Numbered from the stretch's first letter, positions 7,821 to 28,979 are shown. The stretch is 40,000 bases of DNA from Peptostreptococcus sp. D1 (GCF_900112955.1 NZ_FONP01000002.1:192582-232581); one strand, 5' to 3'. Program-made: numbers and translations. The notes: generated by a model from the sequence alone, not told the origin.

Positions 7821-7848
7821 GAAAATATCTTAATTTTAGTTGTTATCT

Positions 7849-8718: not shown

Positions 8719-8817
8719 TACATCTACCTCTTTTATATATTATCCTGTTAAATAAGCTCTTTTTTTACCTCTTTAGCACCTTATATTATACCCTAAATTT
8801 GTAATCTTGTCTTTCTG

Positions 8818-9783: not shown

Positions 9784-10552
9784 AGCAGATCTCCTTTGCC
9801 AAATTGTCATATGCAATATCTACGCTGCTGCCTTTTGCATATTTTTTTATACTTTGACCGCTGTATATGGATTCACCCACTTTGACTGTTTTGGGGATTT
9901 TGGTTTGAAATACCTCTACCTTTCCCTGATACATTTCTTCCACCTGCTGAGTAAGGAGTTTTGAAAGATTTGTCCTGTTATCGCACATGGTAAGCAAGAT
10001 GCCTTTTACCTTTAGACTTGCGTTGACCCTCTTTTTAATTTTTTGAATGGTTTTTAAAAGTTCACTGATTCCGACGATTGCAAACAACTGTGTATCTGCT
10101 GTAATAAGCACACTATCCGATGCACAAAGTGCATTGATGGTCAAGATATTCAGCGATGGAGAAGTGTCTATCAGGATGTAGTCATACTGCTCTCGTATAG
10201 GTTCAAGGATGCTTGATAGGATTCGTTCACTTCCGGTTTCTGCTTTCATCTGCGTTTCTGTAACGGATAGATAAATGCTTGATGGAATAAAGTCTATGCC
10301 ATCATAGGATAGGATATATCCCTTCGCCAAGTAGTTTTCTTCCTCTAATTCTGCCATTAACAGATGTCCTATGGTTTCTGTAAGTTCATTGGCATTTTCT
10401 ATGCCAAAGCATCTTGTGAGATTAGCTTGCGGATCAAGGTCAATGACGAATACTTTTTTGCCGAGTTCTTTTAATGAATACGCAAGATTTAATGTTGTCG
10501 TTGTTTTTCCAACTCCACCTTTTCGATTGGCAACGGTGATAATTTCTGCCAT
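9776..10552 (-). CDS. parA: ParA/Soj-family partition ATPase
   Basis: Deviant Walker A NRKGGVGKTTT, then VIDLDPQANLT. Confidence 0.92.
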   Translation of the reverse strand: MAEIITVANRKGGVGKTTTTLNLAYSLKELGKKVFVIDLDPQANLTRCFGIENANELTETIGHLLMAELEEENYLAKGYILSYDGIDFIPSSIYLSVTETQMKAETGSERILSSILEPIREQYDYILIDTSPSLNILTINALCASDSVLITADTQLFAIVGISELLKTIQKIKKRVNASLKVKGILLTMCDNRTNLSKLLTQQVEEMYQGKVEVFQTKIPKTVKVGESIYSGQSIKKYAKGSSVDIAYDNLAKEICYE

Positions 10553-10697
10553 AGTATGCCCCCTTCTTCTCTATACAGAGATTTCATTTTATGCTATACT
10601 TTTATACAAATTTTGAGTATAAAAAATGATGACAGTCTATCCATCATCAAAGTTTAAAAGTTTTGTGGAAGCCTTTAACCCTTGATTTTTCTTGGAT

Positions 10698-10877
10698 TTA
10701 TTGTACTGTCATCATTATAGCATTATCCCCACACCCACTTTCGCCACAAAGTACTACACATTGACCTTTTGATATAGTTCCTTTTACATTATCTAATGTC
10801 TTTTCTTTTTTTCCTTCATAAGCAAAGTCTATTTTAAAATCCAAAATATCTTCACTTCTATCAGTTATACGACTCAT
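10698..10877 (-). pseudogene. N-terminal stub of an ABC-transporter ATP-binding protein, cut inside Walker A
   Basis: My own translation: MSRITDRSEDILDFKIDFAYEGKKEKTLDNVKGTISKGQCVVLCGESGCG, then unrelated DNAIMMTVQ and a stop. It begins 11 nt after the TetR stop. Confidence 0.6.
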
Positions 10878-10888
10878 AAATTCAACCC

Positions 10889-11509
10889 TTATTTTATAAA
10901 TTCATTAAAAATCTTTTTCCAACCTGCTCCAATAAATTCCCCCAGCATTTTTACATATTCAATAGTTTCATCCTTGCTATATCCTTTTTTGATAATTAAG
11001 GCATAGATATTGAATTGTTGACTCATTAAAAGTTCCACTAAATCCAATTTCATCTCACTTATATCTGAGTCAATGTTTTCCTTTATAAATGTCTTTGTTT
11101 GAAATATTTTATTTTTCATCATTTCATCAAACATAGCCTCAACGGAGCTTCCTTTGCTGCAACATAGCAAAAGTTTACATTCCTCATAATATTCAAACAG
11201 AAGATCTATATACCTTGCAGTTTCTTTCTCTATATTCTTCAAAAAATCTTCAAAATTTTTATCTGTGCGATAATTCATATATGATGCTCTATTATCTTTC
11301 ACCTCTCTATTCAAAGCTTCTAAAAAATCTTCAATCAGACTATAAAAAAGTTCATCCTTTCCTTTGTATCTCGTATATATAGCCCCGGTTGTAACTCCTG
11401 CTTTTTTAGCAATATTACTTATTGCGGTAGCTTGAAATCCATTTTTCAAAAATTCTATTTTAGCAGCTTCTATAATTGGTTTATCCAGTTCATGATTTTT
11501 ATTAGCCAT
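10889..11509 (-). CDS. TetR/AcrR-family transcriptional regulator
   Basis: HTH: FQATAISNIAKKAGVTTGAIYTRYKGKDELF. GAGGAGG lies 7 nt before the ATG at 11509. The longer track ORF reaching 11611 runs through the operator. Confidence 0.88.
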   Translation of the reverse strand: MANKNHELDKPIIEAAKIEFLKNGFQATAISNIAKKAGVTTGAIYTRYKGKDELFYSLIEDFLEALNREVKDNRASYMNYRTDKNFEDFLKNIEKETARYIDLLFEYYEECKLLLCCSKGSSVEAMFDEMMKNKIFQTKTFIKENIDSDISEMKLDLVELLMSQQFNIYALIIKKGYSKDETIEYVKMLGEFIGAGWKKIFNEFIK

Positions 11510-11544
11510 GTTCATTCCTCCTCGTGTTAAAAATACCATGTTTT

Positions 11545-11588
11545 TATAATCAATAATATCATAATCGATAATTATATTATTGATTATA
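11545..11588. promoter_or_regulatory. Perfect 15-bp inverted repeat upstream of the TetR gene (candidate operator)
   Basis: TATAATCAATAATAT (11545-11559) and ATATTATTGATTATA (11574-11588) with a 14-bp spacer, 36 nt upstream of the TetR start. Confidence 0.6.
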
Positions 11589-11821
11589 CAGCAGTTAGTG
11601 TAATCTAACAAGTCCTGAGTAAAGGTTTCGTATATTTTTCACGCTAACTTCACTGGTATTCCCTCTCTTTTTAAAACCTTTAATTTTTCCTGTTTTTCTA
11701 TTCTCTCATTTGTAAACTTCTTCACTGACAGGTATAGCTTTCCCTTTGACATAGATGTAATATTCTTTTTTATCCATTGTGCGTTCCTCCTTTTTCTGCT
11801 CTCTGATTTTGGTTTTTGAGA

Positions 11822-11864
11822 ATAAAAAAGGAGGACTTCTACACTTTGGCGTAAAAAGTCCTCC
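11822..11864 (-). terminator. Rho-independent terminator after the adhesin gene
   Basis: 9-bp stem GGAGGACTT/AAGTCCTCC (11830-11838 / 11856-11864), followed by U6 on the minus strand. Confidence 0.7.
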
Positions 11865-11982
11865 GATTACAACAAGGAAATTGTCCTTTGTTGTATGGTC
11901 TTTATTCAGTTTTCGGTCTTGATTACTTAAAAATCTTTGTTATTGTTTTCACTTCTTTGTCTCCATTCCCATAATACAAATT

Positions 11983-14900
11983 TTACTTTGCGTGTTTTCT
12001 TTTTCTAATACCTAACAGAATAAGTAAACTTCCTGAAGCGAACATCAACCAAGCATATAGGGATAGGTTTGCTCCATCTCCTGTTTTAGGTAAGCTATTG
12101 TTTGTACTTGTGTTTGGTACTTTCGGTTTTTCAGTATTTGGTGGTGTTGGTGGAGTTTCTTTCTCATTAGTGATAGTAAGCCCATCTTTCATGCTTCCTC
12201 CATAGACTACCTTATACTGCTTGCCATCAAATTTAATGGCATTACCATCTTCTCCTACTTCTTTAACTGTGTATTTGTAGTAGTCTGTACTTCCAAGTCC
12301 ATTTGCCACTGCAAGATTTTTGAATACTCCGCTCCAGTTATTACCTGCATTTAATTCAAGTGTTTTTCCTGTAGGATTACCATCTTTATATAGTTCTACG
12401 GTAATTTTTTCCGTTGGAGCTGTAATGGTGTTTCCTTTATGGTCTTTCCACAGCTTTGTTACCTTGACTTCCCTAATTGGAGGTTCCATAGGTGTCCATG
12501 GTTTTTCCTTTTGATTAGTGATGGTAAAGCCGTCTTTCATGCTTCCGCTATAACTTACCTTAAACCACTTACCATCAAGTTTAATGGAACCTGTTGTTTC
12601 TCCGATTTCCTTTACTGTATATTGGTAATAATTGGTGCTTCCAAGTCCATCTGCTACTTCAAGGTTCTTAAACTCTCCTGTCCAGTTATTATCCTTTGTT
12701 AGTTCAAGTTTCTTTCCTGTGGCTACTCCATCTTTGTATAGTTCTACTTCAACTTTTTCAACAGGAGCAGTTAAAACATTTCCATTATCATTTTTCCATT
12801 CCTTAGTAACCTTGATAGTTCTTGTTGGTGGCTCCATTGGTGTCCATGGCGTCTTTTCTTTGTTGGTAATGGTAAAACCATCTGCCATAGTTCCGTCATA
12901 ACTTACTCCGAACCACTTACCATCAAACTGAATAGCAGAACCAATTTCCCCTACTTCTTTGACAGTATATTTATAGTAGTTGGTACTTCCAAGTCCGTCT
13001 GCCACTTCAAGGTTCTTAAACTCTCCTGTCCAGTTATTATCTTTTGTCAGTTCAAGTTTCTTGCCTGTAGCGTCTCCGTCCTTATATAGTTCTACTTCTA
13101 TCTTTGTATCAGGTATATTGTTTCCTGCAAGAAGGTCCCATGCCTTTGTTACCTTGATAGTTCTTGTTGGTGGTATCATCGGTGTCCATGGCGTCTTTTC
13201 TTTGTTGGTAATGGTAAAACCATCTGCCATAGTTCCGTCATAGCTTACTCCGAACCATTTATCATTGAATTGAATAGCTGATCCAACTTCCCCTACTTCT
13301 TTAACGGTATACTTATGAATGGTAGGATTTTCTATTGACTCATAGACTTTCAGTTTTTCAAAAGTTACCGTCCAGTTATTATCCTTTGTAAGCTCTTTTA
13401 TATCTCCTGTGGCAATTCCGTCTTTATATAGTTCTACTTTAATCTTATCAACAGGAGCTTCATTCAAATTACTTCCTGAAATGTCTTTCCACTCTTTAGT
13501 TACCTTAATATCTCTTGTAGGTGGTATCATCGGTGTCCAAGGGGAAAGTTTTTTGTTGGTAACTGTTAGTCCATCTTGTGTGTTGCCTCCGTAGCTAACC
13601 TTATACCAATCTCCATTAAGCTGAATGGAATTAGCTGTTTCTCCTACTTCTTTTACTGTGTAGTTATATTCATTTCCTTGTGCATCTGTTTTATCAAGGT
13701 CGGTCCAAGTATATGTGGTTGTTCCGTTTGTTAATTCAATCGGACTCCCCTCATTTTGTCCGTTCTTTAGAAGCTGTAATTTGATTGTCGGATGATTTCC
13801 TGTTACACCTTCCCATTCTTTGGTTACTTTTACCTCTGTTTTATCTTGTGTATTCTTAATAATCCATAAGTTGTCAGATTCCTGTTCATAGGTAGCTGCA
13901 TAACCTTGCGGAACATTCTTCTCTACCACCTTATATTTAATAAGCGTACCGTCCGCTGTATACTTATCAAGTCCCGTAAAGGTGTGCTTCCAACCTTCAC
14001 TTTTCTTGAGTTCATATTCTTTTATTACATCGTTGCTACCTTCAGCTCTAAGCTCTACAAGTACAGAATCTCTTTCTGCTCCTATCCATTTCTTTTTTAC
14101 AGAAACTTCTGTTTTTTCAACATTGGTATTGGTGATAACCCACTTGCCTGTTGGATCTTTTTCGTAAGAAACTTTATATCCATTTGGAACATTTTTCTCT
14201 ACTACCTTGTATTTAATAAGCGTGCCGTCCGGTGCGTATTTATCAAGTCCTGTAAAGATATGTTCCCAATTTTCATTTGCCTTAAGCTCATATTCTGCTA
14301 CTACATCATTACTACCTTCGGCTTTAACCTGTACGACTACAGAATCACCTGCTGGTCCTACCCATTTCTTTTCTACAGGAATATCTACCTTTTCATTATT
14401 GGTATTTGTTATGATAAAGCCATCTCCTATTGAACCTGAAATAGATGGAGTATACCCCTGCAAGACATCTTTTTCCTCTGCAATGTATTTAATTTCTTCA
14501 CCTGTTTTAGCATTGTATTTTCTAAGGTTTGTAAAAGTATATTCCCAATCAGGAGCAGACAGTTTATGTTCAGCAACCGGTACTCCATCTGCTTTCAAAA
14601 CAACTGTAACTTCAGAACCTACCGGTCCTATCCATTTCTTTTGGACTTTAATGTCTATTTTCTCCGGTTCGTTTGTGATTGTTTTTATCTCAAGATTATC
14701 AGATGTAACGACCACTGTATATTTCGTGTTGTCAACCAAATAATGATCCGGTGCGGCTATTTCTTCTATTTCATACTCTCCCGGAATCAATTGCATAGTA
14801 ACAGCTTCTCCATTTGAATCGGTTATGACCTCAAATGTTGCTCCTGAGGCTTTTCTTGTGATTTTAAATTTAGCATTTTTTAATTTAATTTCTTCATTAT

Positions 14901-15945
14901 CTTCAGCAACTTTAACGATTTTAATCTTGCTCGTTAAATTTCCTTGTCCGCCACCGCCACTTTCTGCATCTTGAAACTGACTTTGTACAATTTTCCCTGT
15001 TTCTGTGCTTGTAAGTTCAGCTGTATTTTTTAATTTAAGTCCTTGTCTATATGTTGAACGATAATGCAGCATATAGGCTTTCCCATCAAGATTTCCCATG
15101 CTATAAGTGAAACTTCTTTTATCTGAAGATAATGTGACTTGATTACTTACATTTACAGGATTTTTTTCAACAGGTTTACCATCTTCAAAGACTATTTCAT
15201 ATAAAACAAACTCACCTGCCACATACTCAATGCCTTCTGGACTTCCCGGATCTTCCACTTCCAATGTATCTTTGATAATAACATTGTTCAAATCACCTTG
15301 CTTTGCGTTTATTCGGATTCTCCATCTGACCAGACTGTCACTTGTTAATGTTTGCCCTGAAACTTTATAAAGAATCTCATTTCCATATTGTGGTGGCACA
15401 TATGGTTTTAATGTAATATGCGGATTAAAAGAACCGACAGCAATTTCGTATTCACCCTCCTGCTCGACAGGATATGATGTTGTATTCCATCTTGCTGTTA
15501 AGTGCATATCTCCAGTTATATTGAACTTATCATTGACATAGCTTGTAAAGGTTACTTTAATTTTACCGCCACCGGGTTCTTGCGGTGTAATAACAGCCCT
15601 TGCCATCAACTCCCCTGAAGGAGCATTTATATCAAAATTACAGTATGATGACTCTGGTGGAAATTTAAACTGATCCGGTAAGTCTATTTCAAAGTAATCT
15701 CCTTCGTGTAGTTCATTTCCATGACTTGAAGCATCCCACTTATAGTTCAACTTAAATAATGAGTTGGAAAAATACCCATCAGGTGGTACAACACCTTCTG
15801 AATTTGTGATACTAAAATCTGTAATGTTAACTTGAACTTCCTTGTTCTCCGCAAATACAGTTTCAATTGGTATAAACATACCTAAAAGCATAACAAAAAC
15901 TAAGAAGAATGAAGTTAGCTTTTGTATGTTACCTCTTTTTTTCAT
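11983..15945 (-). CDS. LPXTG-anchored surface adhesin with multiple Cna-B-type repeats
   Basis: 1320 aa. Signal peptide LTSFFLVFVMLLGMFIPIETVFA. Three about 90-aa and five about 110-aa Cna-B-like repeats (KVTKEW...VELYKDG...YTVKEVGE). C-terminal LPKTG, then a hydrophobic stretch and RKRKHAK. Confidence 0.93.
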   Translation of the reverse strand: MKKRGNIQKLTSFFLVFVMLLGMFIPIETVFAENKEVQVNITDFSITNSEGVVPPDGYFSNSLFKLNYKWDASSHGNELHEGDYFEIDLPDQFKFPPESSYCNFDINAPSGELMARAVITPQEPGGGKIKVTFTSYVNDKFNITGDMHLTARWNTTSYPVEQEGEYEIAVGSFNPHITLKPYVPPQYGNEILYKVSGQTLTSDSLVRWRIRINAKQGDLNNVIIKDTLEVEDPGSPEGIEYVAGEFVLYEIVFEDGKPVEKNPVNVSNQVTLSSDKRSFTYSMGNLDGKAYMLHYRSTYRQGLKLKNTAELTSTETGKIVQSQFQDAESGGGGQGNLTSKIKIVKVAEDNEEIKLKNAKFKITRKASGATFEVITDSNGEAVTMQLIPGEYEIEEIAAPDHYLVDNTKYTVVVTSDNLEIKTITNEPEKIDIKVQKKWIGPVGSEVTVVLKADGVPVAEHKLSAPDWEYTFTNLRKYNAKTGEEIKYIAEEKDVLQGYTPSISGSIGDGFIITNTNNEKVDIPVEKKWVGPAGDSVVVQVKAEGSNDVVAEYELKANENWEHIFTGLDKYAPDGTLIKYKVVEKNVPNGYKVSYEKDPTGKWVITNTNVEKTEVSVKKKWIGAERDSVLVELRAEGSNDVIKEYELKKSEGWKHTFTGLDKYTADGTLIKYKVVEKNVPQGYAATYEQESDNLWIIKNTQDKTEVKVTKEWEGVTGNHPTIKLQLLKNGQNEGSPIELTNGTTTYTWTDLDKTDAQGNEYNYTVKEVGETANSIQLNGDWYKVSYGGNTQDGLTVTNKKLSPWTPMIPPTRDIKVTKEWKDISGSNLNEAPVDKIKVELYKDGIATGDIKELTKDNNWTVTFEKLKVYESIENPTIHKYTVKEVGEVGSAIQFNDKWFGVSYDGTMADGFTITNKEKTPWTPMIPPTRTIKVTKAWDLLAGNNIPDTKIEVELYKDGDATGKKLELTKDNNWTGEFKNLEVADGLGSTNYYKYTVKEVGEIGSAIQFDGKWFGVSYDGTMADGFTITNKEKTPWTPMEPPTRTIKVTKEWKNDNGNVLTAPVEKVEVELYKDGVATGKKLELTKDNNWTGEFKNLEVADGLGSTNYYQYTVKEIGETTGSIKLDGKWFKVSYSGSMKDGFTITNQKEKPWTPMEPPIREVKVTKLWKDHKGNTITAPTEKITVELYKDGNPTGKTLELNAGNNWSGVFKNLAVANGLGSTDYYKYTVKEVGEDGNAIKFDGKQYKVVYGGSMKDGLTITNEKETPPTPPNTEKPKVPNTSTNNSLPKTGDGANLSLYAWLMFASGSLLILLGIRKRKHAK
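12150..13545 (-). repeat. Four tandem units of about 348 bp (about 116 aa) inside the adhesin gene
   Basis: The TPWTPM(I/E)PPTR boundary recurs at about 12490, 12840, 13185 and 13532. The antisense ORFs at 12632 and 12980 begin with identical 27-aa strings, showing near-identity at the DNA level. Confidence 0.85.
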
Positions 15946-16220: not shown

Positions 16221-16826
16221 TCATTTTTCTCTTGTATATCCTCTTTCCTTCAGCCAGTTGGAAAAGGTAGTATGGCTTACACCAAGTTCTTTGGCTCCGG
16301 CTCTTAAGCCTATTTCTTTTTTGCTCCATTTATTAGCCATATTCTCAAATTCTTTAGGAATATCTTTTTTACTTCTGCCGAATTTTACTCCTCTTTTCTT
16401 GGCTTCTCTTATCCCTTCCATCTGTCTTTGATGGGTATTTTCTCTTTCTATCTGAGCTACATAGGATAATATCTGTAAGACAATATCGGCTATAAACTTT
16501 CCGGTTATATCACTTACCTTTGTTCTTGTATCAAGAAGAGGAAAATCAAGTACGATGATTTCAGCATTTTTCTCTTTGGTAATTAGATTCCATTCCTTAA
16601 TAATTTCATCATAGTTTCTTCCCAGTCTGTCTATGGATTTAATATATAGCTCATCTCCCGATTTTAGTTTTCTGATGAGCTTTTTATATTTCCTGCGGTT
16701 AAAGTCTTTCCCGCTTGCCTTGTCGATATAAATTTTATTCATTTCTACTCCCTCTTTCAAAATAGCAGTTAATTGCCTGTCTATATTTTGTTCCTTTGTC
16801 GATACTCTAATATATCCGTATTTCAT
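16221..16826 (-). CDS. Small serine recombinase (resolvase/invertase family)
   Basis: MKYGYIRVSTKEQNIDRQ, SIDRLGRN and a C-terminal HTH GAKELGVSHTTFSNWL. GGAGG SD. Confidence 0.9.
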   Translation of the reverse strand: MKYGYIRVSTKEQNIDRQLTAILKEGVEMNKIYIDKASGKDFNRRKYKKLIRKLKSGDELYIKSIDRLGRNYDEIIKEWNLITKEKNAEIIVLDFPLLDTRTKVSDITGKFIADIVLQILSYVAQIERENTHQRQMEGIREAKKRGVKFGRSKKDIPKEFENMANKWSKKEIGLRAGAKELGVSHTTFSNWLKERGYTREK

Positions 16827-17008
16827 ATATATCCCTCCGTTTCTTTATTCATAAATTAGATATTATACGGATACCTTAAGAAAGACCTTTTTATTTTTGA
16901 AAAAGAAAAAGAAGCCTTTTGGATTTTGTTATCCATTGAGCTTCTTTGATTCTTACTCTGTAAGTTTATGAGGGTTATTCTGCTTTAACAATCTTAATTT
17001 TTACTTCC

Positions 17009-17266
17009 TTGACAACAGTTCTATAGTCACACACCCTAAAAACACCTTAAAAACAATAGTCCTGTTGTTACACCAAGCAAAAAAAGTAGTTCTATTGCTA
17101 CGACCTCTGATTTCCCAGTGGTCAGAACTATTGTCAAACGCTCTAAAATCATAGTATAAACTCGTTGTCCAAACTTCTGTATTTTTCTCTAAACCTTTTG
17201 ATTTCAAGGCTTTTCTATGCTTTTTTTCCTTACTTTCTTGACAGAAGAACTATAGTCTCCACATGA
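17009..17266. repeat. About 258-bp direct repeat, copy A (roughly 85-90% identical to copy B by eye)
   Basis: Alignable base by base with 19177..19434. It contains several GAC-N12-GTC / TTGACA-N-AGWWCTAT motifs. It lies upstream of the resolvase gene. Confidence 0.85.
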
Positions 17267-17506
17267 GATTATTAGGCTATTTTGGAAAATTAAATATCTC
17301 TGCAAAACCCATTGATTTTATCATAACTATAACATTTCTATTGTTTCAATCATATAATTTTTGATTAGGCTATTTTACATAATATAGAAATTATTAATCT
17401 TTTTCAGAGATTTATCGCTCGAAATATCTACCCAGCATCAACTGACATTTTTTAATTTGCATATAGTCGCAACTTTAAAATAATAATATACTTATTTTCA
17501 CTAAAC

Positions 17507-18127
17507 CTATTTTAATTTATCTGCAGCCGGATCCACTTCATACCAATGTTCTGAATTTCTTTTACACTGTAATGCAGCCACTCTTTTTGTAACTTCACGC
17601 TTTATTTTTCCATCTGAATTTAATACATCTATCCACTCTACTGGTTTATTGAAGTATTTCATTTTTCCACCACATATAGGACATTTTTCAATATGAATTT
17701 TTTCTATTGTAATCTTCCTTCCAAGTCCACTTATCGCATAATTAAAGAATAAGGGGTGTCTAGTTTCTTTTTTTGTGATACTCCTTAACCAGAATATCAG
17801 CACCAAAACTAGCATTGTTACAGCAAAAATTACGGCATATATATTATTGTTTGTGTTAACTTGATTACTCTTGTTGGTCAATAAATTAATTACAGGTTCA
17901 AATGTTTTATACATTGGAAAAACCCCTATCAATGAAATGAAAAATCCCATCCATGAAAGTAATGCCATTGTTATAGGACTTCTCCAAACAGGATCTGGTG
18001 TATATTTCGCAATCCTATCTTCTTCATGTTCACTAAATTTGTTATTTCCTGTCACGATATTAGTAGGTCCATTAAAAACATTTCCTGAAAAATTATTAAT
18101 ATTTGACTTAGAATATTTATCTCCCAT
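17507..18127 (-). CDS. Membrane protein with an N/G-rich N-terminus, two TM helices and a C-terminal zinc-ribbon-like domain (hypothetical)
   Basis: AGGAGG (18133-18138) lies 5 nt before the ATG at 18127. NINNFSGNVFNGPTNIVTGNN. TM helices ITMALLSWMGFFISLIGVF and IYAVIFAVTMLVLVLIFWL. CPICGG...CKRNSEHW. Confidence 0.75.
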   Translation of the reverse strand: MGDKYSKSNINNFSGNVFNGPTNIVTGNNKFSEHEEDRIAKYTPDPVWRSPITMALLSWMGFFISLIGVFPMYKTFEPVINLLTNKSNQVNTNNNIYAVIFAVTMLVLVLIFWLRSITKKETRHPLFFNYAISGLGRKITIEKIHIEKCPICGGKMKYFNKPVEWIDVLNSDGKIKREVTKRVAALQCKRNSEHWYEVDPAADKLK

Positions 18128-18140
18128 ATGTATCCTCCTA

Positions 18141-19103
18141 TTATTTTCCTCTCTTCGAGCTATATTTTTTATTCTTTCTACGCACTGTTCCATCTTCTAA
18201 AACTTCCACATTGCTGCGGGACTCCATCTCAAGTTGAACTGCTTCAAATTGCTCTTTTGATATTATTCCCTCATGGTGTTCCTTATTCAAATACTGATTC
18301 TCGGAGCCGCCGGAATCAGCAATTGCCACATCTCCTGTATACTTCTGCCTTGTTAATGTGGATTCAATTCCTTTTTTGCTCCAGCGTTCTTTTCCTTTTG
18401 GCGATTTAATACCGTTTGTTTCCAATCTCTTTATAATTCCACCTATGCTACACCCCTCCAGATACCAATTAAAAATATCTCTGACGACTTTAGCTTGTTC
18501 GTCATCAATAACTAGCATTCCATATTTATCTTTTTTGTATCCATAGCAAGGACGATTATATAATCCTGATGTACCGTTCTCTGCTTTCCTCTTCAGCCCC
18601 CAACGTATATTTTCACTTCTCCATTCATTCTCAGACTGTTCACAAGCTTCAATCACACTTATAAGCAATTCATCGCCTATTGCTTCTGTGTCAATCTTAT
18701 CTCGTTCAAAAATAATTCTTTTGCCCGCTGCACGAATCTTTCGTATGGCTTCCAGACATTCCTGTGTGTCACGTCCAAAACGACTAATACTTTTTGTAAG
18801 TATAATATCGATATTTCCTTTTTCACATTCACTTATCATTCTATTGAATTCTATTCTTGATGTTCCTGTTTTAGCAGAAGCAACATCTAAAAAAATATCT
18901 GCTACAAACCAAGTCCTATGAGCTACCGCCAATCTAGTGAGTCCTGATACTTGTGTAGACAAACTTTCCATTTGTTCCTTACGGTTTGTACTCACACGAG
19001 CGTAGATACCAACAGCATAATCCTTAATCACTCTACGAGGTTGTATCACTGTTATATTTTCATGAATTCTATTTAGTTCATCCACACTCGAGTCCCCTTT
19101 CAA
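18141..19103 (-). CDS. Serine recombinase with a resolvase catalytic domain plus recombinase domain (short form, about 320 aa)
   Basis: GIYARVSTNRKEQ, SISRFGRD, then CYGYKKD...VVRDIFNWYLEG. No long zinc-ribbon/coiled-coil tail. The start is uncertain (TTG 19103, or GVG 19085 after AAGGGG). Confidence 0.85.
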   Translation of the reverse strand: MKGDSSVDELNRIHENITVIQPRRVIKDYAVGIYARVSTNRKEQMESLSTQVSGLTRLAVAHRTWFVADIFLDVASAKTGTSRIEFNRMISECEKGNIDIILTKSISRFGRDTQECLEAIRKIRAAGKRIIFERDKIDTEAIGDELLISVIEACEQSENEWRSENIRWGLKRKAENGTSGLYNRPCYGYKKDKYGMLVIDDEQAKVVRDIFNWYLEGCSIGGIIKRLETNGIKSPKGKERWSKKGIESTLTRQKYTGDVAIADSGGSENQYLNKEHHEGIISKEQFEAVQLEMESRSNVEVLEDGTVRRKNKKYSSKRGK

Positions 19104-19176
19104 ATTTAGTATAATTAAATTGCTAATTTAGCATAATGATTATTAGTCTATTATCGTAATTCTTAATCAAAAAAAT

Positions 19177-19434
19177 TTGACAACAGTTCTATAGTCACAC
19201 ACCCTAAAAACACCTCAAAAACAATAGTACCGTTGTTACACCAAGCAAAAAAAGCAGTTCTGTTGCCACACCCCTCTATTTTCCAGTGGTCAGAACTATT
19301 GTCAAATGCTCTAAAATCACAATGTAACCCCTCTGTCCAAACCTCTGCATTTTTCTCTAAACCTTTTGATTTCAAGGCTTTTATACAACTTTTCTTCTTA
19401 CTTCCTTGACAGAAGAACTATGGTCTCCACATGA
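19177..19434. repeat. About 258-bp direct repeat, copy B
   Basis: See copy A. Its right 36 nt overlap the 3' end of the XkdQ-like gene. It lies 74 nt upstream of the recombinase start. Confidence 0.85.
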
Positions 19435-20390
19435 ACACTATATTTACCACCTGACCATGTATGTTTATCTTTATCAATATAGAACTCTCCAACTAATCCT
19501 GTAAAGCTATCCTTAACCTGTACCTTGTAGCCACATTTACAATCTATATTGCCAAATCCTGAAATACTACAAGTTTTTTCAGGACCCTTTAATTCATTTT
19601 TAATTTCATCATCAGATAAAGCCTTATCCTTTCCTTGTTCAATAACCTTAGTTATATAATGATATAATTTTTTTAGCTGTGGATCGATTTTTTCTTTTAC
19701 CTTGTTTCCTTTTTCATCAACAACCAATACCCTACTTACCATATCATTCATCGATATTTTATAGCTAGCTGATTCTATATTGCTTGACTCCTCAAACATA
19801 AGCTTCAATTTAACTATACCTTTTTCAACGACGTTAAACTTATCCAAATCAACTTCAATCATGTATTTTTTATGAGCTTTATCTTTCTTAGAATGCTCTG
19901 TATACGCACTCATTATAACATCATATCTAGTAGCACCAATAAACAGCTTTGTAATTTTAGTTTCAGCAGGTGCAAGCTTACCATAAGCTAAAGCATGTTG
20001 ACCGTCTTTTCCCTTAAACACCGCTTTTGCAATATCACAAGCTGTTGTGTTTACAAAATTATAACTTACTTGATCCTTACTCAATAAGAAGCCTATATCA
20101 AAAGCCGTCATAGATAGACGATTATCTGTATTTGATTTATCAATATCTATTATAGTTCCTCTGAATATCTCTTTTCCACCTACATAAAAACAACAAGTAG
20201 AGCCTTCTACTATACCTATTTGTTGTATTTTTGAGTCATTTACTGCTTGGATAAATGAAAACTCCAAACACCTAGATGGGGATTTAATATCCCCACTCCA
20301 GGTAACAGATGATAGTACGCTAGATAGTTTATAAAATTTACCTTGTCTAATGTGAACTATTAGTTCTATGTCTTCATTTTTATACTTCAT
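19398..20390 (-). CDS. XkdQ/YqbQ-like tail/baseplate hub protein
   Basis: 330 aa, positioned directly after the LysM protein as in PBSX (xkdO-xkdP-xkdQ). The ATG at 20390 overlaps the upstream stop (TAATG). Confidence 0.7.
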   Translation of the reverse strand: MKYKNEDIELIVHIRQGKFYKLSSVLSSVTWSGDIKSPSRCLEFSFIQAVNDSKIQQIGIVEGSTCCFYVGGKEIFRGTIIDIDKSNTDNRLSMTAFDIGFLLSKDQVSYNFVNTTACDIAKAVFKGKDGQHALAYGKLAPAETKITKLFIGATRYDVIMSAYTEHSKKDKAHKKYMIEVDLDKFNVVEKGIVKLKLMFEESSNIESASYKISMNDMVSRVLVVDEKGNKVKEKIDPQLKKLYHYITKVIEQGKDKALSDDEIKNELKGPEKTCSISGFGNIDCKCGYKVQVKDSFTGLVGEFYIDKDKHTWSGGKYSVHVETIVLLSRK

Positions 20391-21070
20391 TAAGGTATCA
20401 CCAACTTCCAACCACTATATATTACATTAGATTTTTTTAATTGTGGGTACTTCTTTAAATTCTCTGCATTTGATGTTATCTTTTTATATTTAGAGCCATT
20501 ACCGTAATATTTCTGTGCAATCATAAATAGATATTCACCATGCTTTACAGTATGTATTTTAGAGCTTTTACTTAACTCATTTTTTTCTAGGTTTCTCGAA
20601 TACACTTTATTTGGAACTGTATTTGATGGATTTGAACTCTTTGAGGTGTTCGGAGGTGTCCATTCTGGAATAATGATATCTTCATCTTCCTTTAACTCTA
20701 ATGTGAAATATACATCCCCACTTCCATCTTTTTCAAGAAACTCAAAATGGCTTATTCTTACAGGTATGTTAATAGGTGTCGATGTCACAATATATCTAAG
20801 TCTTTCCCCATCTCTACACCATTTTTCTAGCTTATTAACGTAACTATATGGGTCTGTTGTAGGTCCATCTATAAATTGATAATTAGCACCCTCATGTGGG
20901 AAAAAACTGGATAAACTAATCGAGGAAGGCTCATATCCATTAAAGATATTTACCTTCCCTTTTTTTACTATATTTTCCCCTGAGATATCAGCATTGATAT
21001 TTTTCCCTATCTCTGACGGTATAACCGGAAATCTTAAATTTTCAGTATTTGAATTTAGATATACTTCCAA
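20390..21070 (-). CDS. XkdP-like tail protein with a C-terminal LysM domain
   Basis: C-terminal LysM: HTVKHGEYLFMIAQKYYGNGSKYKKI...VIYSGWKLVIP. TTG start after GGGGGTG. Confidence 0.8.
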   Translation of the reverse strand: MEVYLNSNTENLRFPVIPSEIGKNINADISGENIVKKGKVNIFNGYEPSSISLSSFFPHEGANYQFIDGPTTDPYSYVNKLEKWCRDGERLRYIVTSTPINIPVRISHFEFLEKDGSGDVYFTLELKEDEDIIIPEWTPPNTSKSSNPSNTVPNKVYSRNLEKNELSKSSKIHTVKHGEYLFMIAQKYYGNGSKYKKITSNAENLKKYPQLKKSNVIYSGWKLVIP

Positions 21071-21073
21071 GTT

Positions 21074-23023
21074 TTATACACCCCCTGCTTTAGCCAATTT
21101 CATTCTTTTTACAAGTCTACTAACTAATAAATCAATATCGGCTTCTTCTCTTACTGTAATATCATTTATATTTATCACAATACGTTCTTGATCTCTATTT
21201 TCATACTCATTTGCCTCTCGTTTTGTCAGTAATTTTTCCCCTTGATGAGCTCTAATTGGGTAGTTGTCATAGGGTATTCTTGACTGTCCCATAGCTCTTC
21301 TCGCATATGAGGGTACTCCACTGTTGTCTACACCTATGCCACCGCTACTACTGCCTGTTTGGAAACCATCTAAGCCATTAAGCCCCTCAAAGTTGGTATT
21401 TCTCATATGATTGATAGTTTTATCCCACCATTGCATAACATCTTTTAATGCGCCAACGATACCGCTGATAGCATTATTAATCCCAGTTAATAGTGGTAAT
21501 ATTACTTTATCAGCAAGTTTAAGTTTCACCTGCATTAATTGCCATTTTTTCTCCCAATCAGATGCCAATAATTTTATTGCATTTTTTATAAAATCAGGAT
21601 TTTCTTTCAAAAATTTAAACACATCTTCAGCTACACCTTTGAAAAATTGGAATACATCCCCCATTCCTTCAAATGCACCATTTACCTGTTGACCAAACAT
21701 ATTTATGGCTTCTTGTGCTTCCGGAGAATTAGTAATAATATGATTATAAACATCATCCAGCATATCCGTTATTGGCTTCGCTGCCGTTTTTAGCTTACTA
21801 AAATCGATACCCCCAAAATTAGTAATATCTAATAACTTCCATAGTCCGTCAATAGCTTTTTCTGCATCTGTAAACAAACCGCTAAAGAAATCCTTAACTA
21901 TTTGACTGTCGAAAATCTTTTGCATTCTTTCATACATAGGTGTATATACTTTTGATTCTAGTAAGTTATTTGCTATTACCCAAGCATCTTTGAAGTTCAT
22001 AGGTATATTTTGGAATTCTTTATTTACCTGTTCTGAATTTTTAAGAATTGCACGTTTAACTAAATCAGCAGTAAGAAGACCCTCTTTCCCGGCTTCCTTA
22101 ATGCCCATTCCAACTTCTTTTTCAATCATTTTCGCCATTAGTGGAGCTGACTCCCTTATCGTTCTAAGTTCATCACCTTGGAGTGTACCACTTGCCAAAC
22201 CTTGATTTAACTGATACATTGCTGAACTTGCTTCTTCTCCTGATGAACCACCTTTTCTAAATGATTGCATAGCAGTTTGGTAGAATTTAGCAGCTTCTTG
22301 AGGTTTACCGCCAAACACATCAGGTGACATCTGCATAAGCTTAGTCATACCATTTCTAACATCAGATAAATTTGATCGTGAATTTCTAGCTACACCCTGG
22401 ACTAGACTATCATATCCACCAATACTCATACCACCTCTATCAAGTGAACTTGCCCTAGCTTTGTAATCCGAATAATTATTATATCCGTCAATTGTAACTT
22501 TTATGACCTTATCTTTAAGGCTATTAAGACCTTGCTGAATCTTCTGTATTCCCCATTGGGTCATATCGTTTAATTTCACTTTAATATCGTTATATGCACT
22601 TTTAGCAAGTTTCCCAATCCCAAGGCTTATCAATCCTATTCCAGCCAACACGGGATGTTTTCCTAAAAGTTTAAGTGGGATACTTCCAAGTGGTCCTAGC
22701 TTATTAAGCTTACCACCGATGGCATCCAACCCTTTAGATGCTAAATCTTTTACTTCAATAGGTATCTTATTCGATTTTTTTATCATATCACCAAAAGATT
22801 TGTACTTCTTTGATACTTCATCAACTTGTTTTTTAGCATCCTTACCATCCACTTTTAATTTTTTATTACCTTTCAAGCTCTTATCAAATTCCTTATTGGC
22901 TTTTTCAATTTCTTTCGTTTCCTTTTTAAATTTTCTAAGCTCCGCTTGCATCCGCTTTAATTCTTTAGTCATTAAATCTTCAGCTTTAAACCTAGCTTTC
23001 AATTCTGTTGTATTTGTTGCCAT
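21074..23023 (-). CDS. Tail tape measure protein
   Basis: 649 aa, helical and Gly/Ala/Lys-rich, positioned between the chaperone pair and the LysM protein. GGGGGT SD. Confidence 0.88.
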   Translation of the reverse strand: MATNTTELKARFKAEDLMTKELKRMQAELRKFKKETKEIEKANKEFDKSLKGNKKLKVDGKDAKKQVDEVSKKYKSFGDMIKKSNKIPIEVKDLASKGLDAIGGKLNKLGPLGSIPLKLLGKHPVLAGIGLISLGIGKLAKSAYNDIKVKLNDMTQWGIQKIQQGLNSLKDKVIKVTIDGYNNYSDYKARASSLDRGGMSIGGYDSLVQGVARNSRSNLSDVRNGMTKLMQMSPDVFGGKPQEAAKFYQTAMQSFRKGGSSGEEASSAMYQLNQGLASGTLQGDELRTIRESAPLMAKMIEKEVGMGIKEAGKEGLLTADLVKRAILKNSEQVNKEFQNIPMNFKDAWVIANNLLESKVYTPMYERMQKIFDSQIVKDFFSGLFTDAEKAIDGLWKLLDITNFGGIDFSKLKTAAKPITDMLDDVYNHIITNSPEAQEAINMFGQQVNGAFEGMGDVFQFFKGVAEDVFKFLKENPDFIKNAIKLLASDWEKKWQLMQVKLKLADKVILPLLTGINNAISGIVGALKDVMQWWDKTINHMRNTNFEGLNGLDGFQTGSSSGGIGVDNSGVPSYARRAMGQSRIPYDNYPIRAHQGEKLLTKREANEYENRDQERIVININDITVREEADIDLLVSRLVKRMKLAKAGGV

Positions 23024-23026
23024 CTA

Positions 23027-23221
23027 CTACCCCCTTTCTCCCACCATAAAAGGGCAAAGTTGATATTTTTTCTCGTCTAATCTATCTTCTATTTCTTTGA
23101 ATAGAAATGCCTTCATCATTCTATATTCACCAATATCTGATTTCTTTTTTTTATATAATTCAGATGGAGTCAGTCTTGCGTACTTCCAGAAATAGTAAAA
23201 AGTACGCAATTCATCATCCAC
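23027..23221 (-). CDS. Tail assembly chaperone, -1 frame extension (probably expressed as a fusion by frameshifting)
   Basis: It is in the -1 frame relative to 23227..23664 and has no independent SD. The frame is open back to the slippery site. Confidence 0.6.
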   Translation of the reverse strand: MDDELRTFYYFWKYARLTPSELYKKKKSDIGEYRMMKAFLFKEIEDRLDEKKYQLCPFMVGERG

Positions 23222-23226
23222 CTCAA

Positions 23227-23664
23227 TTAGTTTTTTATTTCATCTTCCTTTGGTATATTATTAATTAAATTATCATATGCAGCATATAATAAATCTATTT
23301 CGTCTGGGGTAAGCAAAACTAATACGAGATCAGTTGGTGTCCCTACCTTAAACTTGCTTATAAGTTCTTTATTTTTAAATAGTGCTTCACCATTATAGAA
23401 TACAGAATAAACTAAAGTCAGCAACTTTCTCATCCTATTATTTTCAGCCATTTCTAGCTTCCCTTTGTCTGCCATCTTAAGCTTGTAACCATACTCTTCA
23501 AGCTCTGCTTCTTGCTCCAAACTCATCCTACGCATTTCAATGATAAAAGGTTGATTAAACATTCTAGACAAGCTATCTATTTCTATTTCCTCTTTTTTAA
23601 CTAAAAAATCATCTCTATCTTTACTAAGCAATAAATCAATCAAATTAACATTTTTTTCACTCAT
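23227..23664 (-). CDS. XkdN-like tail assembly chaperone
   Basis: 145 aa, acidic, immediately between the tube and tape-measure genes. Confidence 0.75.
   Translation of the reverse strand: MSEKNVNLIDLLLSKDRDDFLVKKEEIEIDSLSRMFNQPFIIEMRRMSLEQEAELEEYGYKLKMADKGKLEMAENNRMRKLLTLVYSVFYNGEALFKNKELISKFKVGTPTDLVLVLLTPDEIDLLYAAYDNLINNIPKEDEIKN
23230..23236 (-). promoter_or_regulatory. Candidate -1 programmed frameshift heptamer A_AAA_AAC
   Basis: The minus strand reads ATA AAA AAC TAA, at the last codons of the XkdN-like chaperone gene. Confidence 0.55.
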
Positions 23665-23675
23665 TTTTTATCTCC

Positions 23676-24122
23676 TTATATCAAATCTATTGGGTCAAAA
23701 TCATCAAATGTAAATGGGGCTTCTATTTTTCCAACCTCTCCATTTTTAAAGTCAGCAAGGGTTAAGTCATCAAATTGCACTCCCATATATCTAATTCTTT
23801 CAGCTCCCACATTATCAGGGTCATCAAGCTTAGATATAATTTCAAAACTAATTGTTTTTTGCTCTTTCATTCTAACACCAATCAACTTTGTCATTCTTGA
23901 TGAAACCTTAGTCATAGTGCAAGACCCTTTACCCTCTGCTCCTGTTGTTTTATGGGCGTCTATCATTTGTCTTGGTCTTGGTATTGCCGTCTTTTTAAAA
24001 TCTATTTTAGCTTGAAACCCTTCAAGTTCTGCAACATATTCCCCATCTAACCACAGCTCACCGAAAGTACCACTTATACCATCAGTACCTAGTATCTGTT
24101 TTACTTGTTCTTTATCTGCCAT
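23676..24122 (-). CDS. Tail tube protein (XkdM-like)
   Basis: 148 aa from the ATG at 24122 (AGGAGGTG 7 nt upstream). It follows the sheath gene. Confidence 0.8.
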   Translation of the reverse strand: MADKEQVKQILGTDGISGTFGELWLDGEYVAELEGFQAKIDFKKTAIPRPRQMIDAHKTTGAEGKGSCTMTKVSSRMTKLIGVRMKEQKTISFEIISKLDDPDNVGAERIRYMGVQFDDLTLADFKNGEVGKIEAPFTFDDFDPIDLI

Positions 24123-24135
24123 ATTTAAGCACCTC

Positions 24136-25236
24136 CTAAACATTTATATTTATATAAAAATCTTCCATAGCATCCACGCCCTTAAGCGTTATCACTATAA
24201 AAACTTTTGAACCAGTATTAAATTCTTTAAGCTCCTGTTCACTCAAAGATTTTACATCAACACCCTTTTCAATCAAATATTTTTTTTGTGCTTCCATATC
24301 AATATTTACAGAAAATCCATTTGCTATCATTTCACTTCTGTTCAAATCCTCTAAAAATCCTTTTATTTCAGATATCAGCAAACATTTATTATCATAGCTA
24401 TTAGATACCTTACCTACATAAAAATCGGTAATGGACTTTTTAACAGCGTTATTAATCATCTTATACGTTCGTACTAGCTTTATTTTCTTGAAAGTTTCTC
24501 CTTCATTTCCATCAACGCCAGTTAGAGATGTAACACCTCTGGCTATTCTTACTTTACCGCCTTTTTTTACGAGTACCAACTTACCAGCATTTATTAAAGA
24601 GTTCAATTCTTCATTAGTTTTTTTAGGTATATTAGTGATGAACGGCACATTGCAATATGTTATGGATTGTGTAAAAGGTGTACCTGCACACGCACCAACG
24701 ATAAAAGGCAATAGTTTATTGGCAGTGTAGGTAACTGAACCTTCCTTTATATTATCTGTCGCAAACTCAATCACACTACTTGAATTACTTGGATTATTTG
24801 TTGCTATTACAACATCCGCCCAATGTCCTATTTCCTTAAGTTTGTTAATGAATGCTATTAGCTTTGGATTTTCAACCTCGTCTGTAGCATCAGGCATACA
24901 CATATAATTGAATTCAACATTTTCTAATACCTCAAGTGCGTTATCTAATGTATCATCACTACCTATTGAATATACAATAACCTTTGATGGTGTGTACGCT
25001 CTTTCCTCAAGCACCCCACCTACTCTCACATCCTGAATATTACCTTTGAATGCGTGCTCTATATACATAAGATTATCAGATTTATACTTTTCAGTTACTT
25101 GATCAAATGACACGTATTCTTTCAAACCCTTAACAGTTGAGTCCTTTAATATCAAAAGAGCCACACTAGTACTAGCACCTTCTAATGCTCTTCTTTTTTC
25201 TTCTTTGAAACTAATTTTTAACTCAGTTAGCCCCAT
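24136..25236 (-). CDS. Contractile tail sheath protein (XkdK-like)
   Basis: 366 aa. Position and size match the PBSX-type sheath. GAGGT SD. Confidence 0.85.
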   Translation of the reverse strand: MGLTELKISFKEEKRRALEGASTSVALLILKDSTVKGLKEYVSFDQVTEKYKSDNLMYIEHAFKGNIQDVRVGGVLEERAYTPSKVIVYSIGSDDTLDNALEVLENVEFNYMCMPDATDEVENPKLIAFINKLKEIGHWADVVIATNNPSNSSSVIEFATDNIKEGSVTYTANKLLPFIVGACAGTPFTQSITYCNVPFITNIPKKTNEELNSLINAGKLVLVKKGGKVRIARGVTSLTGVDGNEGETFKKIKLVRTYKMINNAVKKSITDFYVGKVSNSYDNKCLLISEIKGFLEDLNRSEMIANGFSVNIDMEAQKKYLIEKGVDVKSLSEQELKEFNTGSKVFIVITLKGVDAMEDFYININV

Positions 25237-25726
25237 TTTTTACCTCACTTTCTATTTTTAATACGTCACTACTACGCATTCTTATAACTTCAATCACATT
25301 ACTATCATTTTTATCAAAATATACCTGTTCATGATAACTTGTTTTAATGCTAAAATTCAAAGTATACCCCACTTCATCTTTTAGTATCAAAGTGTCAATA
25401 TCGGATATATGAATATATCTTCTACCAACCTTTATACTTCTTACAAATTGAGTTTCTAACAATTCTTTGATTTCATTTAAATCGGATTTTTTAACTCTAC
25501 CGTGTGGGAAGTATCGTATGTCAATTACAAGTGATTTTTTATTAAAGTGTAAATTTACTGATTTTGAATTTTCTATATGAACATCAATAAAAAAACAGCT
25601 ACCTTTATTTAAATATAATTGTAATTGGTCGTCATCATCTGTTATTTTACATTTATAGTCAGTATCCTTTATGGTCTCATAAATCATAGATGATACTGAT
25701 TTAATCAATTCATTTATCTTAATCAT
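25223..25726 (-). CDS. Hypothetical phage protein (tail-completion position)
   Basis: 167-aa ORF, translationally coupled at both ends (TAATG at 25726). Confidence 0.7.
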   Translation of the reverse strand: MIKINELIKSVSSMIYETIKDTDYKCKITDDDDQLQLYLNKGSCFFIDVHIENSKSVNLHFNKKSLVIDIRYFPHGRVKKSDLNEIKELLETQFVRSIKVGRRYIHISDIDTLILKDEVGYTLNFSIKTSYHEQVYFDKNDSNVIEVIRMRSSDVLKIESEVKNGAN

Positions 25727-26891: not shown

Positions 26892-26902
26892 CTAAATCAC
26901 CC

Positions 26903-27748: not shown

Positions 27749-27769
27749 ATTAATTCACCATTACCTTTC

Positions 27770-28399: not shown

Positions 28400-28465
28400 C
28401 CCTTATAGTTACTCCTTTCATTGTAATAAAATAAGACCTTTTAACGTCGTGTCTAGGACGATTGT

Positions 28466-28978: not shown

Positions 28979-28979
28979 A

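Follow-up and report, generated by a model that had tools for sequence, protein, structure and literature searches.

Serine-recombinase elements that insert at the 3' end of rumA, the gene for a tRNA/rRNA uracil-5-methyltransferase (RumA/RlmD), have already been described, as have their RumA-mimicking ends, tandem accretion, and use of secondary sites (PMC4120198, PMC4701971, PMC5357655, PMC7168690), and rumA is known as a nested recombinase hotspot (PMC11578063). More specifically, rumA elements target a GA dinucleotide at codon 11 counted from the 3' end of rumA, form tandem insertions, and carry ends that mimic the RumA C-terminus (PMC4120198); their rumA-specific serine integrases also give rise to secondary-site insertions, e.g., that of CTn5 (PMC4701971). 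Here, we analyzed a 40,000-nucleotide (nt) stretch of Peptostreptococcus sp. D1 (GCF_900112955.1, NZ_FONP01000002.1:192582-232581; hereafter the window, with positions counted from its first letter), in which two 258-bp direct repeats bracket a serine recombinase gene, rec314, and a single cargo gene next to an xkdQ-like prophage tail gene. We consider it probable that the window holds tandem rumA-targeting integrative elements that entered a secondary site inside this tail gene. As in the rumA integrative and conjugative elements (ICEs) as well as the vanG/ICE-r elements of streptococci, enterococci, and clostridia (PMC4120198; PMC4701971), the GA of the window family lies in a Glu codon ~11 codons from the rumA stop, left ends mimic RumA, tandem arrays are bounded by short direct repeats, CTn5-like secondary insertions occur in protein-coding genes, and large serine recombinase (LSR) genes read into the rumA 3' codons (e.g., in related loci L004 and L028). 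In contrast to those elements, the unit next to xkdQ (unit 1) measures only 2.2 kb and carries no conjugation or mobilization genes, and its recombinase (314 amino acids, aa) has no zinc ribbon and lies at the left end behind a 258-bp module, whereas theirs lies at the right end and spans attR.

Alignment of positions 17009-17266 (copy A) with 19177-19434 (copy B) yielded a gapless 258-nt direct repeat with 32 mismatches (87.6% identity), whose starts lie 2,168 bp apart and whose similarity breaks off abruptly at both edges. The original prediction for this DNA had proposed such an end-to-end repeat with ~30 mismatches or indels, and no indel was found; likewise, the related sites that it placed at the four copy ends were recovered, in that the motif TTGACANNAGWWCTNTNGTC has these four ends as its sole sites in the 40 kb (6 hits on both strands versus 0.09 expected; 0 of 100 shuffles gave 6 hits). 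The inverted internal version and the several related sub-sites per copy that it also described were detected by motif scans: ACWAYAGDWCT occurs nine times in 40 kb (0.56 expected), eight of these occurrences falling within the two copies, and the inverted motif is present at 17118-17137 and 19286-19305. Between the copies lie, as had been claimed, one serine recombinase open reading frame (ORF) at 18141-19085 and one cargo ORF at 17507-18127 (the genes, modules, cores, and elements of the window are all on the minus strand). Both copies encode HVETIVLLSRK followed by a stop codon, so that the claim that copy A re-encodes the same 11 residues holds, and in copy B these codons are in frame with the xkdQ-like ORF and close it. 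The GC profile is flat at ~33% throughout and was uninformative.

The origin of these 11 codons became apparent from other samples, in which the exact recombinase protein (P0001) and the 206-aa cargo ORF recur directly 3' of a tRNA/rRNA uracil-5-methyltransferase gene that passes the rumA/RlmD model TIGR00479 (249 bits, cut-off 183.55). The distance from gene stop to recombinase start is 314 nt for the methyltransferase gene versus 313 nt for xkdQ in the window. L001 and L002 carry different rumA alleles upstream and are identical to the window from CATGTGGAGACC on; in both, the cassette is inserted at the GA of the rumA Glu codon, whereas the left flank in the window is xkdQ. In Streptococcus dysgalactiae, an ICE LSR gene is followed at its 3' end by the module and a recombinase with 98% identity, and the core sequence found at the xkdQ junction stands after two different rumA genes and one LSR gene 3' end (L001, L002, and L004). 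Counting the window, module and recombinase (93-100% aa identity) were found in five left contexts (xkdQ, three rumA alleles, and the LSR gene 3' end), all of which break at CATGTG, and the near-identity of recombinase and module across them upholds the proposal that the bracketed recombinase and cargo are mobile as a unit. Since the cassette follows rumA alleles and an ICE LSR gene end elsewhere, HVETIVLLSRK with its stop, judged from these junctions, is a RumA/RlmD C-terminus carried by the element, and not that of XkdQ. Comparable RumA-like C-termini are supplied by other elements, i.e., ETVVLMSR... and ESVVLMSKA... as compared with (HV)ETIVLLSRK in the window and the published ECVALLQRSKG (PMC4120198). 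Copy B had been read as the C-terminus of the xkdQ-like gene; the in-frame fusion stands, but the codons are a rumA 3' end on a truncated tail gene. Similarly, of the idea that an element inserts into a gene's 3' end and brings a replacement end, the mobile DNA and the replacement end are retained, whereas the gene so served is rumA and xkdQ has been cut mid-gene.

The truncated xkdQ/yqbQ-like gene (19398-20411; Pfam YQBQ, PHROG tail protein) has an own part that ends in ...GGKYSVHVE, its last 9-11 codons being element-derived. Its nearest homologues, encoded by Clostridioides difficile phages (≤50% identity, ~570 aa), comprise a YqbQ domain followed by an NlpC/P60 domain; the alignments end at ...GGKYSVHVE opposite ...G(N/D)YEID(L/M)(D/E), and the homologues run about 240-250 aa further. 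As indicated by these alignments, xkdQ breaks off within the gene, without the NlpC/P60 domain that its closest homologues have, and the annotated XkdQ is a hybrid of the phage YqbQ domain and 9-11 residues of RumA C-terminus. At the alignment end, Y-x-(V/I)-x-(V/L/M)-(E/D) forms a conserved pattern, and native xkdQ therefore plausibly reads SVHVE, which would supply the pseudo-core CATGTGGA and place the fusion at the Glu codon. Recombination at this pseudo-core would have grafted ETIVLLSRK and its stop onto XkdQ residue ~322, removing the NlpC/P60 domain and parting XkdQ from the baseplate genes; as long as the insert does not excise, the prophage could probably not assemble a baseplate. A metagenome scan for the xkdQ junction flank gave zero matches, and exact-protein look-ups of the tail tube protein, the invertase, and a 320-aa form of the recombinase ORF returned zero records.

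All breakpoints between contexts fall at CAYGTNGAG, in which GA is invariant except in one degenerate terminal copy. Crossover most likely takes place in this 9-bp core (CAYGTN-GA-G), at the GA, which coincides with the published rumA target (PMC4120198). In the window, direct-repeat core 1 (19399-19434; CATGTG-GA-GACCATAGTTCTTCTGTCAAGGAAGTAA) mimics a rumA 3' end at the xkdQ junction and has its putative crossover GA at 19426-19427, and direct-repeat core 2 (17231-17266; CATGTG-GA-GACTATAGTTCTTCTGTCAAGAAAGTAA) has its GA at 17258-17259. The original prediction had instead described the core of the sites as an imperfect GAC-N12-GTC palindrome. A crossover at its center is contradicted by the central dinucleotides of partner copies, which read TA, TC, and TT in L022, TA and TT in L025, and TT and GT in L001; a serine recombinase could not tolerate such differences at the crossover, and exchange at these centers is therefore not supported. 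The same data bear on the view that the 258-bp copies are res-type resolution sites, at which a resolvase-like synapse deletes the intervening DNA by crossover at the palindrome. This view accommodates the several related palindromic motifs per copy with their 30-41 bp spacing and the adjoining serine recombinase gene, the retention of all motifs in downstream copies, and a distant subfamily in which three repeated motifs of a different kind (GTTGAGTTGACAGRAT) occupy this place. The multi-sub-site region beside a serine recombinase gene likewise recalls Tn3/gamma-delta and Sin/beta res, direct repeats of which would delete the DNA between them, and the recombinase may plausibly regulate itself via sites at its own promoter. 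However, the palindrome centers differ between partners, the contexts break at CAYGTNGAG rather than at the palindromes, and the downstream copy in many loci is only a 21-60 bp core, which suggests that long accessory regions may not be needed on both partners. Moreover, whereas resolvases have ~185-200 aa and a C-terminal helix-turn-helix, rec314 has an LSR-type Recombinase domain and is not a 185-aa resolvase; its putative crossover is not at a palindrome center, partner sites are often only a short core, and the elements integrate into a chromosomal gene. We therefore regard res-type resolution as an unlikely explanation of the repeats.

Under the preferred reading, i.e., tandem rumA-type elements, unit 1 would be a mini-element that extends from 19427 down to about 17260 (2,168 bp) and consists of module, recombinase, cargo, and the right end AAATAGCCTAATAATCT. 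Its left-end module B (19177-19434) holds the core, a conserved CTTGAAATCAA block, four repeated motifs (from m1 at 19292-19302 to m4 at 19180-19195, located by motif scan and alignment), and a final palindrome, GACTATAGAACTGTTGTC. A putative promoter/operator region of the recombinase follows (19086-19176), containing at 19138-19152 AATAGACTAATAATC, a copy of the cassette right-end motif. The right end itself, TTTCCAAAATAGCCTAATAATCT (17266-17288), adjoins core 2, as in the consensus of 34 related loci, in which AAATAGCCTAAnnAnnn directly precedes CAYGTNGAG. Unit 2 would then begin with its own 88%-identical module, copy A (17009-17266; motifs at 17246-17256, 17124-17134, 17058-17068, and 17012-17027), which forms the left end of a conjugative element. 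Because the module start mimics the last rumA codons, insertion into the normal target would leave RumA intact. As the cores are in direct orientation, their recombination would release unit 1 in the form of a 2,168-bp circle that has the predicted junction ...AATAATCTCATGTG-GA-GACCATAG... and join the truncated xkdQ to module A; the ~2.2-kb circle that had been forecast is thus reasonable, although it would form via the core and not via the palindromes. The composite may have integrated in one piece, or the conjugative element may have arrived first and the cassette later at the hybrid site, and both routes lead to the observed unit order. Recombinase-proximal modules are near-identical across the five left contexts and distal copies are not (window copy A and the second copy of L001 share 71% identity), and hence the module belongs to the unit on its right, with exchange at its left edge. 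The junction from cassette to module A recurs with 100% identity in an independent sample (L003). In L001, the module at 9652-9908 is a mosaic, its first ~145 nt matching window copy B and the next ~75 nt copy A, which points to homologous exchange among modules.

The recombinase gene rec314 (18141-19085) likely starts at a GTG preceded by AAAGGGGA, giving the 314-aa P0001 form with Pfam Resolvase and Recombinase domains but without a zinc ribbon or coiled coil. Its relatives number 1,368 at E≤1e-20, and most of the matches listed have 306-323 aa, Resolvase and Recombinase domains only, and a conserved C-terminus (RKxKKYSSK). Since most of these listed relatives share this length and C-terminus, rec314, as judged by the comparison, is a natural short form and not a broken gene. 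The closest structures in the PDB are 3G13 (a catalytic domain from the recombinase of a C. difficile conjugative transposon) and SprA residues 56-298; rec314 stays far under the XisF cut-off and scores 67, 53, and 47 bits with the NCBIfam models for CcrA, CcrB, and CcrC, as compared with cut-offs of 900, 700, and 900. Among 2.9 million viral contigs, relatives are rare (17, mostly at contig ends). The 206-aa cargo ORF (17507-18127) encodes two hydrophobic helices and a C-terminal zinc-ribbon-like CxxC...C...H motif, which reads CPICGG...C...H, and had zero matches in Pfam, PHROG, PADLOC, and NCBIfam. Unit 1 accordingly consists of a recombinase and an ORF with no family match in these collections, and carries no relaxase; integrative and mobilizable elements are marked by a relaxase and/or oriT of their own. 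L001, L027 (Gemella), and L028 (P. stomatis) each have, after the recombinase, an ORF matched to the cargo by size and position, the recombinases of Peptostreptococcus stomatis and Gemella haemolysans being 78-79% identical at the aa level.

Alignment of 18 module sequences gave a common order, i.e., the core with its rumA mimic, a conserved CTTGAAATCAA(G) block, the near-invariant block TGACAATAGTTCTGACCACTGG (m1), and then m2-m4, ACAAYAGRWCT motifs at 36, 30, and 41 bp, of which the last two lie inside tandem ~40-bp units. The four phased ACWAYAGNNCT motifs would be putative accessory or regulatory recombinase sites rather than crossover sites. Closer to the gene, most related loci have TAGNCTAA upstream of the start of the recombinase gene, frequently in the form of a palindrome of 50 bp: in L054, L065, L067, L077, L080, L081, and L084, the near-perfect palindrome TTTAGACTAATCA-N25-TGATTAGTCTAAA lies ~40-90 bp upstream of the start, directly ahead of the ribosome-binding site, and each of its arms matches the cassette right-end motif. 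A subfamily with 50-55% identical recombinases carries the triple repeat GTTGAGTTGACAGRAT at the place of the motifs, and the Gardnerella-type module has yet another sequence. Long downstream module copies occur in ~25 loci, whereas only 21-60 bp are repeated in many others. A metagenome scan with a 22-mer found 18 contigs with modules after rumA or LSR-type gene ends, followed by varied accessory genes; no rec314 homologue was found on any of the 18, and at least one recombinase-less unit among them ends in AAATAGCTTAA. When the repeat was searched by blastn in collections of phages and plasmids, zero hits were obtained, as was the case in exact-motif scans of viral contigs.

Modules directly follow rumA stop codons in many genomes, one subgroup has between the CTTGAAATCAA(G) block and m1 a hairpin and T run in which pairing is kept despite sequence change, and terminators follow the module; these features would also be expected if the 258-bp element were a structured noncoding RNA or a conserved rumA 3' untranslated region, duplicated because elements copy their native flank. 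Such an origin is very improbable in our assessment, as there are zero Rfam 15 matches at gathering score or E≤1, the RNAalifold consensus (-4.8 kcal/mol) reflects the m1/m3 inverted repeat only, and modules are 70-90% identical across taxa in which RumA is only 38-48% identical. The latter difference implies horizontal spread and ruled out a native, vertically inherited rumA flank. Coding sequence was rejected as well, 51-70 aa ORFs inside the copies being broken by 1-nt indels among close relatives. From the missing Rfam match, the restriction of the fold to m1/m3, and the indels, we infer that the ~220 bp beyond the core are protein-binding DNA with accessory or regulatory sites, and neither RNA nor coding. 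A further suggestion is that each 258-bp copy is an invertible switch, ~220 bp of which are flipped by a DNA invertase upstream of the recombinase gene; the end sites are mutually inverted in gene orientation with TT versus AA centers, and a DNA-invertase-type gene lies nearby. Yet a profile search recovered more than 60 module copies, every one of which has the same orientation relative to the adjoining core or recombinase, and the left "site" is the rumA-codon mimic and varies along with it, which leaves the switch hardly any probability. In our reading of these modules, every unit at the rumA hotspot starts with one, be it a recombinase cassette, a recombinase-less cassette, or a conjugative element, and resident copies are left ends of neighboring units or scars that lost units left behind.

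In GTDB, scanned at one genome per species, 288 relatives were found, from which 80 loci were fetched; our strict core counts cover these 80. A core was present upstream of the recombinase in 40 of them (25 with a rumA-type flank, ...MFPxTxH, 4 with the end of another cassette, and 2 with an LSR gene end) and downstream in 37, where the right-end motif AAATAGCCTAA precedes it in 33. Relatives were thus inserted at the rumA GA target in at least 25 GTDB loci, and the family layout, shown by about 60 related loci, runs from rumA through CAYGTN-GA-G, a recombinase of ~310 aa, and cargo to AAATAGCCTAA-N6, which abuts the next CAYGTN-GA-G. Core-to-core units measure 1.56-5.5 kb, the 2,168 bp of the window comparing with 2,128 in P. 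stomatis, 2,178 in Gemella, and 2,161 in Gardnerella. Tandem arrays bounded by short direct repeats were seen in L016, L020, L022, L025, L033, and L036, as are the window units by their cores (19399-19434 and 17231-17266), and units without a recombinase but with both end motifs in L022, L040, and L131. Cargo across units includes a complete Kiwa system (KwaA and KwaB), Fic, Mrr, a PDC-S60 candidate, a serpin, DUF6037, and several uncharacterized proteins. The Kiwa pair stands behind a 309-aa recombinase in a single rumA-adjacent unit of Eubacterium plexicaudatum ASF492 (L094:6644-10925), whose 206-bp direct repeats are 92% identical, the second abutting a GntR regulator and ilvD.

The Gardnerella rumA loci (L012-L015, L029-L034, and L102-L103) contain cassette arrays with a Gabija-like pair (OLD-family ATPase/TOPRIM and UvrD helicase), SMODS and SLATT, Schlafen/Fic-like proteins, and NUDIX; the first three sets occupy neighboring positions and do not lie between the recombinase-bracketing repeats. 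RumA C-termini in Gardnerella fall into two classes, a native-looking one ending in HHTESVAILCKS and an element-type one ending in HHVESVVLMSKA(D), and loci with the native end have no recombinase, yet carry the Gardnerella-type module and recombinase-less units. In one such recombinase-less locus, a frame 3' of the module (L103:7790-8062) ends in ...VWLSMVDHLTVHQDGKVEFTFLDGSKTELKR before its stop and is presumably the C-terminal remnant of a large serine recombinase, which it resembles. For one Gardnerella RumA allele, all eight contigs (L121-L123 and five similar ones) end within ~120 bp after rumA, consistent with assemblies breaking at the repeated module, and no alternative downstream context was obtained for this allele, as every contig stops at the repeat.

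Similar cassettes are known from the staphylococcal cassette chromosome (SCC; CcrAB/CcrC), which likewise consists of serine-recombinase units at an rRNA methyltransferase gene end (the 3' end of rlmH/orfX) with the frame preserved, forms tandem composite islands bounded by direct repeats, and carries resistance and defense cargo (PMC11470126). In contrast to SCC, the target here is rumA and not rlmH, the units are much smaller, and rec314 scores far below the Ccr cut-offs. SCC is not known to have a counterpart to the long repeat-rich module. Integron cassette arrays are comparable in that small one-to-few-gene units are stacked at one chromosomal site, some of them recombinase-less with both ends, but they rely on tyrosine and not serine chemistry; in addition, many units here carry a recombinase, and there is no attI/attC hairpin logic. 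In the RADS study (Andersen 2026, PMC13552941), serine recombinase genes are likewise co-oriented with and immediately upstream of defense-like cargo, and comparable cargo here includes the complete Kiwa, the Gabija-like pair, SMODS and SLATT, and Mrr. That study used as bait the Gin-like small recombinase EF_B0058, beyond which rec314 has an additional Recombinase domain, and left the mechanism open, with no att sites or rumA targeting (PMC13552941). In the searchable literature, we found no account of the ~310-aa zinc-ribbon-less mini-cassette family, its conserved right end, or its repeat-rich module, nor of the mix of known and candidate phage-defense genes in and around these arrays. We tentatively put forward, as a possibility less probable than the local reading of the window, that these ~310-aa recombinases define a widespread cassette system, in which 1.6-5.5-kb units that begin with a ~220-350 bp module and end in AAATAGCCTAA stack at the rumA 3' end or at any copy of the 9-bp core (ICE ends, a phage gene), recombinase-less units are moved in trans, and cargo is enriched in defense genes; such a system would be a serine analogue of integron and SCC arrays, with the module as an architectural part of the recombination site.

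Several observations weigh against the interpretation of the window as stacked rumA elements. First, rec314 lacks the zinc-ribbon and coiled-coil parts on which known large serine integrases rely to recognize att sites and to set directionality, which makes its competence for integration putative, and it sits at the left end of unit 1, whereas a canonical large serine integrase is encoded at the right end. Second, a circular junction, a cassette-free allele, an empty site, or an alternative orientation was seen in no dataset, and native xkdQ sequence was not found in our searches, so that the pseudo-core rests on protein alignment. Third, modules occur with no rec314 nearby, as do their Gardnerella-type equivalents; the function of the module is thus not purely recombinase regulation, and the assumption that each module is tied to a recombinase gene fails. 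Fourth, a derivation of the repeated motifs from the core arm by copying fits the window, where 16 of 20 positions agree, as well as the L094 type (GTTGAG), but it becomes less convincing with L037 and L039, in which the resemblance fails and core variant and motif type are uncoupled. Finally, the window includes neither the 3' part of xkdQ nor the conjugative element's far end, and within it insertion, inversion, and deletion look alike. An intrachromosomal site-specific inversion or deletion between a rumA-resident element end and the xkdQ pseudo-core would produce the same junction sequence, with its reciprocal product outside the window, and rumA is a known hotspot for prophage/ICE composites (PMC7168690). 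The window holds no counter-evidence to such a rearrangement, but it is less parsimonious than the secondary-site insertion documented for this element class (PMC4701971), and we judge it improbable. Contigs of related loci often break at the repeat, which might suggest that the join of phage and element is an assembly chimera; the two sides, however, share only ~9 nt, far under assembler k-mer sizes, and the fusion lies in frame and exactly at a known recombination core, which makes a chimera extremely unlikely. Secondary-site insertion of rumA-type units remains our preferred account. The data show its anatomy, the target identity, the breakpoints, and the family-wide architecture; the recombinase responsible for the xkdQ junction, the exact base of crossover, and the role of the repeated motifs are inferred.

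The surroundings of the two units are as follows. In the order 3' of XkdQ, the recombinase, the cargo, and copy A are followed by a 201-aa invertase-type recombinase, a 1,320-aa adhesin, and conjugation and replication genes. The small serine recombinase (16221-16826) matches Pfam Resolvase and the PHROG DNA invertase family, with a sub-threshold match to the Mpi family. Copy A had been described as lying upstream of this gene, which is true by position, but the spacer (16827-17008) contains, as read directly from the sequence, a terminator-like hairpin (AGAAGC...GCTTCT with a T run) and a TATAAT box before the invertase, which would thus have its own -10 element; the hairpin was not scored in the promoter/terminator scan, which was uninformative. 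The partial conjugative element (1-15945, by family matches), which continues beyond the window, encodes a Cna-B/collagen-binding adhesin, TetR, ParA, ParB, Bro-N, RepA_N, a DnaC-like loader, DUF3801, VirD4/TraG, a C5-methylase fragment, SSB, and TrbL/VirB6. The adhesin gene (11983-15945), which adjoins the invertase-type recombinase gene, has internal 276-bp tandem repeats (e.g., 14005-14136 and 14281-14412). The C-5 cytosine methylase fragment (2325-2958) covers only positions 62-208 of the 324-position profile in overlapping ORFs of two frames and is probably a broken gene within the conjugative element. On the other side, a PBSX-like myovirus prophage (20390-40000), interrupted after xkdQ, has annotated LysM/XkdP, tape measure, XkdN-like, tube, and sheath genes, the whole 19398-40000 stretch being on the minus strand; annotation of the prophage covers its tail genes. 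Within the window, family annotation found no baseplate or fiber genes 3' of XkdQ, where conjugation genes stand instead.

The arrangement described here explains a disabled prophage, whose tail hub gene is interrupted and whose baseplate genes have been moved away by conjugative DNA of at least 19 kb, and it corrects the annotation of the XkdQ-RumA hybrid protein. The 206-aa cargo is a candidate protein for further attention, as related recombinases from at least three genera are followed by an ORF of equal size in the corresponding place. Besides the resistance-carrying ICEs for which rumA is an established hotspot, tiny recombinase-cargo cassettes are stacked there in many Bacillota and Gardnerella, with Kiwa, Gabija-like, SMODS/SLATT, Mrr, and many uncharacterized genes. 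A sequence-defined handle for defense-gene mining is provided by CAYGTNGAG as the core, AAATAGCCTAA as the right end, and the module, and the cassette family opens the question of how sites are selected by a serine recombinase that has no zinc-ribbon domain.

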